The position numbers and the translations under genes were made by a program. Below the pieces are notes generated by a model. That model saw only the letters and a list, made by a program, of their open reading frames with translations. It was not told where the DNA came from and did not search any database. From Myxococcota bacterium (lineage in GTDB: Bacteria > Myxococcota_A > SURF-8), in the NCBI GenBank assembly GCA_963674735.2, contig CAXXQS010000002.1, positions 1,408,001 to 1,472,000 of the forward strand: a DNA stretch of 64,000 nucleotides, read 5' to 3'. Below are positions 25,039-29,731 of the stretch, piece after piece; position 1 is the stretch's first letter, and each line of letters starts with the position of its first letter.

Positions 25039-25659
25039 TCATGCGAGGAAGGGATTTGTACGGCGTTCGTGCCCAATCGTGGTCGATGGCCCATGGCCGG
25101 GGTGCACGGCAACCGAATCGTCGAGTGTCAACAGCTTTTTTCGAATAGAATCAATCAGTTGCGGATACGAACCACCCGGAAGATCGGTGCGACCGATGGA
25201 CATGGCGAACAGTGTATCACCTACGATGACATCTTCACCGGCCAAGAAGCAGACGCCGCCGGGTGAATGGCCGGGAGTATTCAAAATGGTTATCGTGGTT
25301 TCGCCCAGTTGGATCGGTGTGTCTTCCGATAAGACACCATCGATGACCGGGACGCCGACGGCGGACAGCCCGAAATATCTGGCCGCTTCATCGGCTTGTT
25401 CGACCAGCGGAACATCGGCAGGATGGAGCTTGAAGGGGATTTTCAGATTTTCCTGAAGCTCCTTGACGCCGGCAATGTGGTCGATATGGCCATGCGTATT
25501 GACGATCGCCTCAACTTGAAGAGCCTTTTTCTCAATGAAATCAAGGATTCTCCGGTTTTCGCCACCGGGGTCTATAATCAGTGCTTTCTGGGTGCCCTCA
25601 TCCCAAACAATGTAGGTATTTTCTTGAAAAGCACCGACGACAAACGCTTCAATCTGCAT
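25039..25659 (-). CDS. MBL-fold metallo-hydrolase (glyoxalase II/YcbL-like)
   Basis: THGHIDH, TPGHSPG, GDTLF, SIGRTDLPGG, PGHG. Start at ATG 25659 after GGAG. Confidence 0.92.
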   Translation of the reverse strand: MQIEAFVVGAFQENTYIVWDEGTQKALIIDPGGENRRILDFIEKKALQVEAIVNTHGHIDHIAGVKELQENLKIPFKLHPADVPLVEQADEAARYFGLSAVGVPVIDGVLSEDTPIQLGETTITILNTPGHSPGGVCFLAGEDVIVGDTLFAMSIGRTDLPGGSYPQLIDSIRKKLLTLDDSVAVHPGHGPSTTIGHERRTNPFLA

Positions 25660-25700
25660 AAAGTAGCTCTCCATGGGAAGGATCATTCACGAAACAACGT

Positions 25701-25730
25701 ATTATACGCACCCGGGCTTTGGTTTGTCTA
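25701..25730 (-). promoter_or_regulatory. Putative sigma70 promoter of the MBL-LON-def-fmt-rsmB operon
   Basis: TAGACA-N18-TATAAT on the minus strand. Confidence 0.55.
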
Positions 25731-25773
25731 ACAAATTCCCGAACTTATTACTTCTGGAAATAGATTAAAATAA

Positions 25774-25802
25774 TTGACATTTCATTCCGATATCATTACA
25801 CT
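25774..25802 (+). promoter_or_regulatory. Putative sigma70 promoter for panD
   Basis: TTGACA-N17-TACACT with an AT-rich upstream tract; implies a ~190-nt 5' leader. Confidence 0.75.
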
Positions 25803-25811
25803 TCGCCCTGT

Positions 25812-25901
25812 CGCCGGGATCCGATAGGACCTGGACGCGTGTGATTCACGATGCTTATCCTTCCGCTGGTTGGATGGCAATCCCGATTGGGATGCTAATC
25901 C
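25812..25901 (+). ncRNA. pan RNA motif-like cis-regulatory leader (two hairpins with bulged A residues)
   Basis: Hairpin 1: CG-CCGGG-[A]-UCC-GAUA-GGA-CCUGG-[A]-CG (25812-37). Hairpin 2: GGAU-GGCA-[A]-UCCC-GAUU-GGGA-UGCU-[A]-AUCC (25872-901). Both lie in the 5' UTR of a pantothenate gene. Confidence 0.65.
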
Positions 25902-26001
25902 CCGAGTCCGTGAACCTGCCGTCTTGTCCCAATCCGATTCCGCCGGAAATCTTCTTTGACTCGATTTTAGCCATGACACTGGGCTACGTGAGGAGAATCC
26001 G

Positions 26002-26409
26002 ATGGAACGCACGATGTTGAAATCGAAGATACACCGCGCAACTGTGACACACGCCGATCTTGAATACGAAGGTAGCGTGACCATCGACCAGAATCTTTTA
26101 GAGGCCGCCGATATCTGGGAGAACGAGCTTGTACACATCTGGAATGTGACAAACGGCGCTCGCTTCGAAACCTATGCTCTTCGGGGCGAACGGGGATCCG
26201 GCCTGATTTGCATCAACGGTGCGGCTGCACATCATGCAAATCCCGGTGATCTGGTCATTATCGCCAGTTGGTTGAAGATGACGGATGAGGAAGCGCGCGA
26301 CTGGCAGCCGAAGCTGGTATTCGTCGATGACCGCAATTGCGCCAAAGAATTGAATCGCCCCGAAATTCCAGGGCCGAACAAGCCGTTGCCGATGGCCTCG
26401 GCCAACTAA
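26002..26409 (+). CDS. panD: Aspartate 1-decarboxylase proenzyme
   Basis: [20 protein letters not shown] pyruvoyl cleavage site, [15 protein letters not shown]; AGGAG RBS. Confidence 0.97.
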
Positions 26410-26427
26410 GCTCGCCGGATTGATCAT

Positions 26428-27555
26428 TTGACTTTACACCGGTCATTCGATGTCGCCGAACGTGTTCGGCGGTTGCAGGAAATGTTGGGTGCTACGCCCC
26501 GGCAGTGGTCCGACTGGCGTTGGCAGCTGCGTTCCCGCATCACATCGCCCGACGAACTCAGCCGCTATCTTTTCCTCTCATCGCGAGCGCGCCGAGGCAT
26601 GGAACGGGCGGTCCGGCTGTTTCCCATGGCGGTCACACCCTATGCCCTGGCTTTGATCGATCCGGAGAATGCGCGTTGTCCGTTGCGGCGTCAGATGATT
26701 CCCTCCGAACGCGAGTTGAAAGACCGTTTGGGGATGATGGATCCGCTCGACGAAACCCTCCATTCTCCGGTTCCCGATTGTATTCATCTCTATCCCGATC
26801 GCGTGGCGTTGTGTGTTTCCCGCAATTGTGCGATGTACTGCCGTTTCTGTTTCCGCAAACGCCGCACTCACGAGAATGTTCCCGCCGATGCTTTCGAGCA
26901 AGCGCTCGCTTATATCGAAAAAACACCCCGAATTCGGGATGTTCTGGTAACGGGCGGAGATCCTTTGATGTTGCCGGATCGGGTTCTACTCGACCGTCTG
27001 GCCCGTTTGCATCGCATTCCACATGTTCAGATCCTGCGAGTGGGGACCCGAACGCCTGCGATGCTGCCGATGCGCATTACCCCGGCTTTGGTGCGGGGGT
27101 TGAAGCGTCTTCAGCCGATTTACGTCAATGTTCAGTTCAACCATCCCCGAGAATTGACAGCCGAATCGAAAAAAGCGCTGGCGATGCTGGCCGATGCCGG
27201 AATTCCTCTGGGGAATCAATCGGTTCTGTTGAAGGGGGTCAATGACACACTGGCAGTGATGCGTCGTTTGGTGCATGAGCTGCTCGAAAACCGGGTCCGG
27301 CCCTATTACCTTTTTCATCCGCATTTGGTGGAGGGAACCGAGCACTTTCGTCCGCCCATCGAGGTGGGACTCAAAATTATGGAAGGTTTGGAGGGCTATA
27401 CTTCCGGTTTGGCCTCCCCCCAATACGCCATCGATACGCCCCATGGAAAAGTGCCCTTGACGCGCCAGCGGATTATTCGGCGGACGGACTCCGAAGTGGT
27501 TGTCCGAACGTACGACGGTCACGTGTGGCACGAAGCCAATCCGCGTAAAACGTAA
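26428..27555 (+). CDS. KamA-family radical SAM/PLP 2,3-aminomutase, atypical substrate site
   Basis: WSDWRWQL, YPDRV, CAMYCRFC (CX3CX2C), TGGDPL, NQSVLLKGVND, RPYY, TSG and PLP lysine in DTPHGK. Start uncertain (TTG, weak RBS). Confidence 0.88.
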   Translation: MTLHRSFDVAERVRRLQEMLGATPRQWSDWRWQLRSRITSPDELSRYLFLSSRARRGMERAVRLFPMAVTPYALALIDPENARCPLRRQMIPSERELKDRLGMMDPLDETLHSPVPDCIHLYPDRVALCVSRNCAMYCRFCFRKRRTHENVPADAFEQALAYIEKTPRIRDVLVTGGDPLMLPDRVLLDRLARLHRIPHVQILRVGTRTPAMLPMRITPALVRGLKRLQPIYVNVQFNHPRELTAESKKALAMLADAGIPLGNQSVLLKGVNDTLAVMRRLVHELLENRVRPYYLFHPHLVEGTEHFRPPIEVGLKIMEGLEGYTSGLASPQYAIDTPHGKVPLTRQRIIRRTDSEVVVRTYDGHVWHEANPRKT

Positions 27556-27658
27556 AAAAGCACGCTCAAGATGGTCCGATATGAAGCTGCCGGGTAAAAG
27601 TCTTGCGCCGCCGCCGCGACCTAAGGTAATCTGAGTAACATCCGTTCAGGAGGTGACC

Positions 27659-29731
27659 ATGCGGAAGACATGTCCGATCAGTTTATGCCTGCTGGTACTC
27701 ATTCTGGCGATGTCCGGGTGCTTGGAAGCGCGGACGAAACCGGCCGACCATGCCTTGGTTAGCGATGCTCGTTTCGAGGCGGGAATGGAAGCCTTCCGTC
27801 GCTCGGATCTGGACTTGGCCGGTAAAAAGCTTGAAGCCTACGTAAAAAGCGATCCTTCAGCGGCCAACGTCGCCGAGGCGGTTTTGACTCTGGGTAAGAT
27901 CGCGCTATATGAACGCCGTTACGATGACGCCATTGCGTCTTTCGGACGCGTGACCGAAGGTTTTCCAAGCTCGCCGTATTCGCCGGAGGCACGCCATCTA
28001 TCGACCGTTGCGTCTGCGGAAAAGCGGCGCATGATGCAGCAAGCGAGCGCCGCATCGTCCGGATCTTCTCCGGTGGGTGACACGCCGACCGAGTCCCCCG
28101 CGCTTTCGAACTTGGCGGTCGGACCGCAGGGAGAGGCTTTTCTTACCTTGGTAGCCGCTTGGCGCGAAGCCGATGACGCGGGTCGGATTGCCCTTTCCGA
28201 CGACTTGAAAGAACAAGTCGACCGCATGGGCGAAGTCGAGTTGTTGCAGGTGCTGCACGAAACCGCCGGAGCTGATGAGCCGTTCGGAGTGATCCTTTAT
28301 CGATTGGGTGCTTTAAATCGGCACCAGGGCGAAATCGATCGGGCTGTGCGTCATTTCGACCGTCTTCGCAAAGAGTTTCCCGAGCATTCTCTCGCAAAAC
28401 GCGCCGCATCGGCCCTTGCGCAAATCGAGAGCTGCCGGAAGGTCGACGCCAAGAAAATCGGTGTTATGTTGCCCCTTTCCGGGCGCTTTAAAGTGTTGGG
28501 AGAGCGGCTACAGCAAGCTGTCGAGTTGGCGGGGACCGAGATGAAGGCCCGGCTTGGCGGTAACGTAGAATTGATTGTGCGTGATACCCAAGGGGATCCC
28601 AAAACGGCCGTAGCCGTCTTCGATCGTCTGGTTCTCGAAGAAAACGTGATCGCCGTGATTGGCCCGGTGTTGGGCGATACGGCTCAGACCGTCGCATATC
28701 GGGCGCAACACTACGGTGTTCCACTCGTGACCCTTTCGCCGCGCAAAGGGTTGCCCGAAATCGGGGATCAAGTTTTTCGTGTGGCCATGACGGCCGAGAT
28801 GCAGGCTCAGACGATTGTGTCTTATGCGTGGGATACGCTGGAGTTGCGGCGCTTCGCGATTTTGTATCCTCGGCATAACTACGGCGAAGATTTGGCCCAT
28901 GCTTTCTGGGACGAAGTCAAAAAACGAAACGGGATCATCGCCGGGGTGGAAAATTATGTTTACGATGCCACCACGTTCAAGCGTCCGGTGCGCAGTATGG
29001 TGGGACGATACAATCTGGTGTATGCAAATCCCGATGGGGGTGTGTGCCGCGACACAAGCGGTGCTCGTTGCGGTTTGGTGCGCAGCAAATATGATGACGA
29101 GGCCTGGCCGATTGTCGATTTCGAAGCCCTGTTTATTCCCGACTATGCTCGGCAAGCCGGTATGATCGCACCCTCCCTTCCTTTTGAGGAAGTGGAAATC
29201 GATACCAAGCGAACCTATGACTATCGCCGGGTGACGCGCAAACGGCGTCGAACCGGAAAAGATGTCCCGATGGTGCAGCTATTGGGAGGTAACGGCTGGA
29301 ATAATCCCCGCCTCAAGGAGTTTGGCGGAAAATGGGTTGAGGGTTCGATCTTTTGCGATGGCTTCTTTGCGGGAGATGTCGACAATCCTCGGGTGTATAC
29401 CTTTGTCGACGCCTTCAAGAAGGCCTATAAGCGCCAGCCCGGATCGATCGATGCCTATGCCTATGATGCGGTCGGGTTCGTTGAACAGGCGCTCGCGAGT
29501 CGCAAACCGACTGAGCGTCGAGGTTTTCGTGATGCTCTTATCGCCATTCAGGATTTCAAAGGTGTGACGGGCGCTCAGAGCTTCGCCTCCGATGGCGAGT
29601 TGCTTGGCCGCTTGATTCTGCTGACGTTGCACGAAGAAGAAATTGTTCCGGCGGTTGTATATGAAACAAACGCCGCCGAAACCTTGGATAATGCGGCCCC
29701 CCAATCCCAAAAACTGCCGAGCGAGGGATAA
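27659..29731 (+). CDS. LpoA-like/periplasmic binding protein type 1 lipoprotein with N-terminal TPR repeats
   Basis: Lipobox AMSGC; TPR/BamD-like repeats (FPSSPY, FPEH); IGVMLPLSG, VIGP, ALFIPD, FKGVTG; AGGAGG RBS. Confidence 0.8.
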   Translation: MRKTCPISLCLLVLILAMSGCLEARTKPADHALVSDARFEAGMEAFRRSDLDLAGKKLEAYVKSDPSAANVAEAVLTLGKIALYERRYDDAIASFGRVTEGFPSSPYSPEARHLSTVASAEKRRMMQQASAASSGSSPVGDTPTESPALSNLAVGPQGEAFLTLVAAWREADDAGRIALSDDLKEQVDRMGEVELLQVLHETAGADEPFGVILYRLGALNRHQGEIDRAVRHFDRLRKEFPEHSLAKRAASALAQIESCRKVDAKKIGVMLPLSGRFKVLGERLQQAVELAGTEMKARLGGNVELIVRDTQGDPKTAVAVFDRLVLEENVIAVIGPVLGDTAQTVAYRAQHYGVPLVTLSPRKGLPEIGDQVFRVAMTAEMQAQTIVSYAWDTLELRRFAILYPRHNYGEDLAHAFWDEVKKRNGIIAGVENYVYDATTFKRPVRSMVGRYNLVYANPDGGVCRDTSGARCGLVRSKYDDEAWPIVDFEALFIPDYARQAGMIAPSLPFEEVEIDTKRTYDYRRVTRKRRRTGKDVPMVQLLGGNGWNNPRLKEFGGKWVEGSIFCDGFFAGDVDNPRVYTFVDAFKKAYKRQPGSIDAYAYDAVGFVEQALASRKPTERRGFRDALIAIQDFKGVTGAQSFASDGELLGRLILLTLHEEEIVPAVVYETNAAETLDNAAPQSQKLPSEG

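Follow-up and report, generated by a model that had tools for sequence, protein, structure and literature searches.

We analysed a 64,000-nucleotide (nt) stretch of a Myxococcota bacterium genome (contig CAXXQS010000002.1, positions 1,408,001 to 1,472,000; hereafter the window), in which panD, the gene for aspartate 1-decarboxylase, lies behind a pan RNA leader and is followed by a gene of the KamA family of radical S-adenosylmethionine (SAM)/pyridoxal phosphate (PLP) aminomutases. The arrangement of the two genes, the altered substrate pocket of the aminomutase and the presence of the pan leader were all verified. Profile scores and motif comparisons place the enzyme in the KamA family, outside the lysine, glutamate, arginine and EpmB signatures, and alignments and a tree show that its altered pocket characterises a very large clade and is not special to the panD locus. 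The original prediction took the enzyme for a natural aminomutase acting on a smaller substrate, possibly converting L-alanine to beta-alanine as a backup to PanD under anoxia. The evidence does not show that the enzyme makes beta-alanine, a proposal that is weakly supported, and a role related to elongation factor P (EF-P) is at least as likely, being an equally good or better reading.

The panD unit and its pan RNA leader

The unit contains the following features, given in positions of the window with the basis of each call.

25774-25802, + strand: sigma-70-like promoter (TTGACA, 17 nt spacer, TACACT); consensus match only, 10/12
25805-25844, + strand: single pan RNA hairpin, stem with two bulged A; covariance model R1 and covariation
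25870-25902, + strand: second leader hairpin, limits approximate; RNAalifold on 5 leaders, alignment A3 columns 68-102
26002-26409, + strand: panD, aspartate 1-decarboxylase, 135 amino acids (aa); TIGR00223 and PF02261
26410-26427, + strand: spacer between panD and the KamA-like gene, 18 nt, without a terminator-like site; simple terminator scan
26428-27555, + strand: KamA-family radical SAM/PLP aminomutase of the short-loop 'FHP' subclade, 375 aa; profiles, alignment and tree
26827-26850, + strand: CX3CX2C motif (CAMYCRFC; Cys134, 138, 141), [4Fe-4S]/SAM site; alignment to PDB 2A5H, invariant in the relatives' alignment (A1)
27304-27324, + strand: YYLFHPH, with His299 at the position of Asp293 in lysine 2,3-aminomutase (LAM); aligned over YYIYQCD of 2A5H
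27430-27450, + strand: IDTPHGK, with Asp336 equal to LAM Asp330 and Lys341 equal to LAM Lys337, the PLP lysine; alignment to 2A5H

The KamA-like gene had been described as starting 18 nt after panD with no terminator between them, and both the coordinates and the terminator scan agree: the panD stop codon (TAA) occupies 26407-26409, and a simple scan of the + strand from 25500 to 27900 found no terminator-like site. The panD product scores 172.1 bits against TIGR00223 (cut-off 106) and 171.3 bits against PF02261, and its translation retains the YEGS self-cleavage context; the gene is single-copy in the window's genome (G000). The KamA-like open reading frame begins with a TTG codon. The N-termini of relatives agree with this start and show an 'F..ERVR' stretch ahead of the conserved W-DWRWQ block, which backs it. 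It should be noted that the public gene call for 26428-27555 (protein P0001) begins at Met58 and is 318 aa long, omitting about 57 N-terminal residues, and that the nearly invariant residues W27-Q33 of alignment A1 are lost in this call. Relatives carry TTGACA-type boxes at the equivalent place ahead of the pan hairpin. Given the promoter-like site, the pan hairpin and the second position of the KamA-like gene in the unit, the layout suggests that this gene is probably co-transcribed with panD.

The leader ahead of panD is about 200 nt long. A scan of this leader with Rfam returned nothing at gathering score, and a lenient scan gave the pan model (RF01749) 22.2 bits against a gathering score of 36.2. 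RF01749 expects two hairpins, and the score stays below threshold because the leader has a single hairpin while most described pan RNAs are tandem. According to the available text of PMC2864571 (Weinberg et al. 2010), each pan RNA is a single stem in which two bulged A residues are conserved; such stems usually, though not invariably, occur in tandem. The matched part corresponds to the second hairpin of the Rfam model, GUCGCCGGGAUCC...GGACCUGGACG, with its two bulged A. Directly after a TTGACA-type promoter upstream of panD, the hairpin occurs in six genomes (G000, G001, G003, G004, G007 and G008), over which three pairs covary (C-G to U-A, U-G and others) with pairing kept. We built a covariance model (R1) from these six hairpins. 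Over the 10 genomes that represent the window's order in our collection, R1 matched strongly only the six (38.1-48.2 bits, with 41.8 bits for the window hairpin at G000:C2:1433805-1433844); the next best match scored 24.3 bits. Across 151 genomes of the phylum it found 24 new loci, five of them with panB-panC (25.5-32.9 bits), which start 100-215 nt downstream on the correct strand; at the other 19, no pan gene was found with the queries used. The conserved, covarying hairpin and the recovery of panB-panC leaders by R1 therefore identify the window leader as a genuine single pan hairpin, as originally proposed, even though it falls below the RF01749 gathering score. The second leader hairpin shows some compensatory pairs, and its conservation is weaker than that of the pan hairpin. 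The locus thus presents a single-hairpin pan RNA ahead of a unit that holds a non-pan gene.

Elsewhere in the window's genome, panC and two panB copies are located away from panD. The full-length panB copies lie at G000:C2:336215-336988 and 1636790-1637560, neither of them near panC, panD or a pan hairpin.

An orthologue of the KamA-like gene is present in seven of the 10 genomes of the order (53-100% identity), the other three having only LAM-type genes. In five of these seven (G000, G001, G003, G004 and G008), spanning two families, panD is directly upstream. The remaining two (G002 and G005, from one genus) are fragmented assemblies with panD on a different contig from the orthologue. Among G001, G003, G004 and G008, only G004 shares the flanking genes of the window. 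Scans for related loci matched at least 588 stretches in genome contigs and at least 591 in metagenomes, and 80 loci of each were inspected. Among the 80 genome-contig loci inspected, panD stood beside the KamA-like gene only in G001's own contig; the other panD was 4 kb off, on the opposite strand, by a gene that is not of the short-loop type. Among the matches listed, panD was seen in 0/80 of the metagenome loci inspected. It was likewise seen in 0/31 of the other short-loop loci fetched, beyond the five linked to panD, and in 0/23 further short-loop loci from 401 genomes of the phylum. Within the loci examined, panD linkage is confined to the window's own order. The linkage of the clade to panD is found within the order (5/7 orthologue genomes) and was not seen outside it in these loci. 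As for the immediate neighbours in the window, a divergent metallo-beta-lactamase-fold gene lies upstream of the panD unit and a TPR/LppC-type lipoprotein gene lies 97 nt downstream of the KamA-like gene.

The substrate pocket and the short-loop clade

The KamA-like protein consists of Radical_SAM and LAM_C domains and passes the KamA family model (TIGR00238; 291.9 bits, cut-off 199.2). It misses all four equivalog cut-offs: 421 bits against 650 for glutamate 2,3-aminomutase (TIGR04368, its best NCBIfam score), 407 against 525.4 for AblA/LAM (TIGR03820), 349.8 against 600 for arginine 2,3-aminomutase (TIGR04468) and 227.9 against 369.3 for EpmB (TIGR03821). As its signatures differ too, the earlier statement that it fits none of these types was borne out. 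Its best solved relative is the LAM of C. subterminale (PDB 2A5H, E 1e-107). The CX3CX2C motif, the PLP lysine, YYLFHPH, IDTPHGK and IHLYPDR are all exactly as first reported. The alignment to 2A5H agrees that His takes the place of Asp293 and that the PLP loop is two residues shorter, with AIDTPH--GKVP over VVDAPGGGGKTP; Lys341 is invariant in A1. The chain ends near LAM residue 370, ahead of any Cys-rich tail, so the C-terminal zinc-binding cysteines are indeed missing, and the Cys of the internal 'NDC' is replaced by Thr. In LAM, Asp293 and Asp330 together hold the epsilon-amine of lysine (PMC3965090, available text). Of this pair the window enzyme keeps only Asp336, the equivalent of Asp330.

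These changes are widely shared. Among the 119 best database relatives, 109 have the short DTPxGK loop, which carries Tyr, His, Phe or Ser. At position 299 these 109 have Gln (76), His (31) or Asp (2), and all 109 keep Asp336, which is also an invariant column in A1. We built a FastTree phylogeny of 299 KamA-family sequences (database hits, genes from fetched loci and two G000 paralogues, leaving out the duplicate places L021, L022, L101, L103, L104 and L189), rooted arbitrarily on the long paralogue. In this tree, 143 short-loop sequences form one clade (support 0.936), which stands beside an 'FYCE' clade, the glutamate type and the LAM type. The 'FHP' subclade within it (n = 40, support 0.825) is made up of the window's group of 25 (support 0.999) and a Bdellovibrionota group of 15. 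A sister subclade carries the motif YQ[AC]Q/DTP[HY]GK and is referred to below as the YQAQ type.

Database records call short-loop proteins either 'lysine 2,3-aminomutase' or 'KamA family radical SAM protein' and nothing more specific, and an Atlas search likewise gave names at family level only. In the titles and passages of the literature found, neither a natural alanine 2,3-aminomutase nor the short-loop clade was described. The KamA family has few assigned substrates (lysine, glutamate, arginine and the EpmB reaction), and the gene is a handle on a very large, phylum-spanning branch whose substrate site has a signature of its own and to which the libraries searched assign no function. Three contexts yield hypotheses on this branch: panD with the pan RNA in the window, ATP-grasp and MprF-like genes in sister groups, and the sole KamA-family gene together with EpmA in Oligoflexia-type genomes.

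The window's genome has two further KamA paralogues, a long N-extended form and a true LAM (425 aa with a Cys-rich tail; 574.4 bits, AblA cut-off 525.4). The latter lies in a multi-gene cluster (G000:C1:2623926-2630301) with same-strand genes of 359, 807 and 442 aa, and the whole may represent an operon for lysine fermentation.

Candidate reactions and roles

Our leading reading, which we hold tentatively, is that the enzyme is a basic-amino-acid aminomutase with an EF-P-type role. By analogy with the family, the [4Fe-4S] cluster on Cys134/138/141 would cleave SAM to a 5'-deoxyadenosyl radical. This radical would take a hydrogen from C3 of the substrate, which would be bound to PLP as an aldimine once Lys341 is released, and the amino group would then migrate from C2 to C3. 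The invariant buried Asp336 and the polar His or Gln at position 299 suggest that a substrate whose side chain is basic or polar, such as lysine or a shorter diamino acid, is likelier than alanine. As a leading guess at its role, the enzyme would supply a beta-lysine-type amino acid to the modification of EF-P by EpmA. Its adjacency to panD would then stem from a common operon, of the kind that holds epmA in a sister genome, rather than from a part in making beta-alanine.

Several observations are consistent with an EF-P-type role. The window's genome encodes EpmA (323.7 bits, cut-off 286.9) and an EF-P with a PGKG loop and has no classical EpmB; EpmA is above the cut-off in nine of the 10 genomes of the order. 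In G007, a genome of a sister family, the pan hairpin and panD are followed on the same strand, with short gaps, by a PilZ gene and epmA (locus L194, G007:C9:4143-7481). The genes of this unit lie as follows in L194.

1456-1839, - strand: panD
670-1428, - strand: PilZ gene
3-632, - strand: epmA

EF-P genes therefore do share a panD operon in the window's order. Among 105 Bdellovibrionota genomes at least 85% complete, 96 have an EpmA-like gene and 91 have an orthologue of the KamA-like gene (at least 50% identity). The FHP-type gene is the sole KamA-family gene in 5/5 Oligoflexia-type genomes tested. Its low EpmB score does not exclude an EF-P role, since the EpmB model is likewise missed (254.8 bits, cut-off 369.3) by the KamA gene of L058, whose linkage to efp and epmA is clear.

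A number of findings weigh against this EF-P-type reading. Neighbouring efp or epmA genes, which the original prediction regarded as a sign against beta-alanine synthesis, were found within the flanks of 0/36 and 0/23 short-loop loci. Linkage to efp and/or epmA is seen in a separate clade (22 sequences from 19 loci) whose members retain Asp or Glu at position 293, and E. coli EpmB keeps both acidic residues. EpmA is present in the three genomes of the order that lack a KamA-like orthologue, and five Bdellovibrionota genomes have an EpmA-like gene and no KamA-family match. There is a second KamA gene in 4/5 Bdellovibrio-type genomes tested, and the complementarity of the FHP type with EpmB/TIGR03822-like genes in Bdellovibrionota is partial. 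In the sister YQAQ subclade the association is with ATP-grasp ligases instead of EF-P. Furthermore, in G008 a GC-rich hairpin with a T-run, resembling a terminator, lies between panD and the KamA-like gene. If the EF-P-type reading is true, such an EpmB replacement would widen the range of EF-P modification to lineages in which it has received no study.

We also considered whether EpmA is absent from Bdellovibrio-type genomes, whose 446-525-aa frames had been read as lysyl-tRNA synthetase (LysRS). This was rejected, as the 484-aa protein of G136 is EpmA-like (EpmA 255.6 bits, LysRS 172.7 bits) and the real LysRS is separate. The G136 protein (L273:553-2007, - strand) has an N-terminal extension of about 145 aa, and its 255.6 bits fall below the EpmA cut-off of 286.9; the EpmA frame of G000 is extended as well (445 aa). 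Outside the short-loop clade, kamA-efp-epmA clusters of the Syntrophales type were seen at L054, L057, L058, L061, L070, L075, L082, L154, L158-L165, L169, L174 and others. Since the L058 gene falls below the EpmB cut-off, likely EpmB genes of these lineages go unnamed.

We consider it unlikely that the enzyme is a natural L-alanine 2,3-aminomutase supplying beta-alanine for pantothenate and coenzyme A under shared control of the pan leader with PanD. The wider proposal, in which the whole FHP branch has this activity, working in the pan operon with PanD here and filling a PanD gap in Bdellovibrionota, is distinctly doubtful. Both draw on the place of the gene in a panD unit headed by a genuine pan hairpin that is the only strong R1 match per genome, on the retention of the pair in 5/7 genomes of two families, and on a pocket altered by a shorter loop with Tyr, His, Phe or Ser. 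The sister group in Bdellovibrionota fits as well, with the orthologue in 91/105 genomes, PanD in 4/105 and PanC in 99/105; three of the four PanD-bearing genomes lack the orthologue (Fisher p = 0.007, not corrected for relatedness). Moreover, related subclades pair with D-Ala-D-Ala-ligase-like and MprF-like genes, suggesting small amino acids, and alanine 2,3-aminomutases have been engineered from LAM through an active-site Asp change (PMC9850924, available text). The original prediction was right on this last point, but the Asp concerned would not be the one altered here. The key change in the engineered enzymes (Cargill patent) is D331G/D339H, according to the same text. By its numbering, this Asp would be the equivalent of Asp330, which is present in the window enzyme as Asp336 and is invariant in the clade (109/109 and A1). 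A charged invariant Asp in the pocket would in turn argue for a basic or polar side chain.

The genomic context also speaks against alanine as the substrate. The enzyme would be redundant alongside an intact PanD encoded in its own operon. PanD depends on a pyruvoyl group and does not require oxygen, so the idea of an anoxic backup has no obvious rationale. In Bdellovibrionota, 11/105 genomes have PanC and neither PanD nor the orthologue, two of them with hits on a contig of more than 1 Mb, and six genomes with the orthologue show no PanC. Seven of 11 other genomes carrying short-loop members have PanD. No pan hairpin precedes the stand-alone orthologues: scanning 10 Bdellovibrionota-type loci with Rfam turned up no match to pan, and unfiltered R1 scores at 15 loci with stand-alone orthologues were at most 11.3 bits, apart from the known panD leader of G008. 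Many bacteria, in addition, lack PanD and make up for it by other routes (PMC7142369, available text). Of the proposed alanine to beta-alanine conversion, the pan unit and the Bdellovibrionota pattern thus remain in favour, and the invariant Asp336, the intact PanD and the 11 PanC-only genomes stand against it. If true, a natural alanine 2,3-aminomutase would represent a new beta-alanine pathway of biotechnological interest. Among the Bdellovibrionota (G041-G147), PanD is rare although PanC is nearly universal. The two genomes with hits on a contig of more than 1 Mb, G083 and G084, have PanC and an EpmA-like gene and no KamA-family gene.

A further possibility, which we rate below an even chance but somewhat above the alanine reading, is that the enzyme makes another beta-amino acid for a ligase-made peptide, a lipid head group or a solute, and that its adjacency to panD is a lineage-specific accident of gene order. 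The loss of the panD link outside one order is compatible with this, as are the neighbourhoods of related genes. In 22/23 YQAQ-type loci of the phylum (L225-L247), a Ddl-like ATP-grasp gene is immediately upstream, one of the 22 having only a fragment of the gene at a cut locus end. L037 (5014-7170) encodes a fused ATP-grasp-KamA protein of 718 aa, and at L024, L105, L106 and L107 LPG_synthase_C or LPG_synthase_TM (MprF-type) genes adjoin the KamA gene. The YQAQ association with ATP-grasp and MprF-type genes looks like an undescribed system for beta-amino-acid ligation or lipid aminoacylation. The window's genome itself encodes a 683-aa protein whose two halves are each of the Ddl-like ATP-grasp type; a Peptidase_S58 (DmpA-type) gene comes next (G000:C1:1668676-1671848; L286:4177-7349, - strand). 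Full-length copies of the double ATP-grasp protein occur in G001, G003 and G004, but it is missing in G008, G100 and G136, which have the KamA-like gene; as an ATP-grasp partner acting in trans it is therefore inconsistent across genomes. Against such a product it also counts that no ligase gene adjoins any FHP-subclade member in the loci inspected, and that conservation in nearly all Bdellovibrionota, mostly as a single copy, is more in keeping with a housekeeping role. It is very unlikely that the enzyme is an ordinary LAM with drifted residues, serving lysine catabolism or making beta-lysine as a solute. LAM is its best solved relative (E 1e-107), but the AblA score of 407 bits is below the cut-off, and the enzyme lacks Asp293, the zinc site and two residues of the loop. 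A LAM that scores above the cut-off is already encoded in a multi-gene cluster of the genome, and no ablB-like or kam genes were found in the flanks of the window's KamA-like gene.

Three side observations concern these neighbourhoods. The double ATP-grasp/Peptidase_S58 pair of G000 adjoins an SNF-family transporter gene. The neighbours of the Bdellovibrionota orthologues are Maf, endonuclease III, a 2Fe-2S ferredoxin and an M17 peptidase. Ligase coupling also extends beyond the short-loop clade: at G005:C230:3591-6849 (L188), two single-domain Ddl-like ATP-grasp genes come directly after a KamA gene of the LAM type.

Comparison with known systems

The window enzyme resembles LAM (2A5H; AblA, TIGR03820) in its fold-level match, the CX3CX2C motif, the PLP lysine and the Asp330 equivalent, and the two also have in common an Arg two residues past the third Cys. 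It differs in having His for Asp293, DTPHGK in place of DAPGGGGK, no internal Cys and no C-terminal Cys tail. With glutamate 2,3-aminomutase (TIGR04368) it has in common the 'FH' of that enzyme's FHAK motif. In glutamate enzymes the two substrate sites are occupied by Lys and Asn, as the original prediction held and as both the available text of PMC3965090 and the glutamate-type relative L043 show, whereas the window enzyme has His and Asp there. EpmB (YjeK) is likewise short and without zinc cysteines, and the window's genome has both the partner EpmA and a Lys-type EF-P loop. However, E. coli EpmB (sequence from NC_000913) has Asp and Glu at the two sites, in line with the earlier claim that it retains acidic residues, together with a full-length loop. 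The window gene is not beside efp or epmA, both of which lie elsewhere in the genome, and falls in another clade of the tree than the efp-linked genes. The engineered alanine 2,3-aminomutases, as far as the available text of PMC9850924 describes them, belong to the same family and also have an altered active-site Asp, but, judged by numbering, at the Asp330 equivalent, whereas in the window enzyme the Asp293 equivalent is altered. The leader resembles pan RNA (RF01749) in placing a stem with bulged A residues upstream of a pantothenate gene, and the same hairpin precedes panB-panC in five other genomes; it differs in consisting of a single hairpin and in heading a unit that also contains a KamA-family gene.

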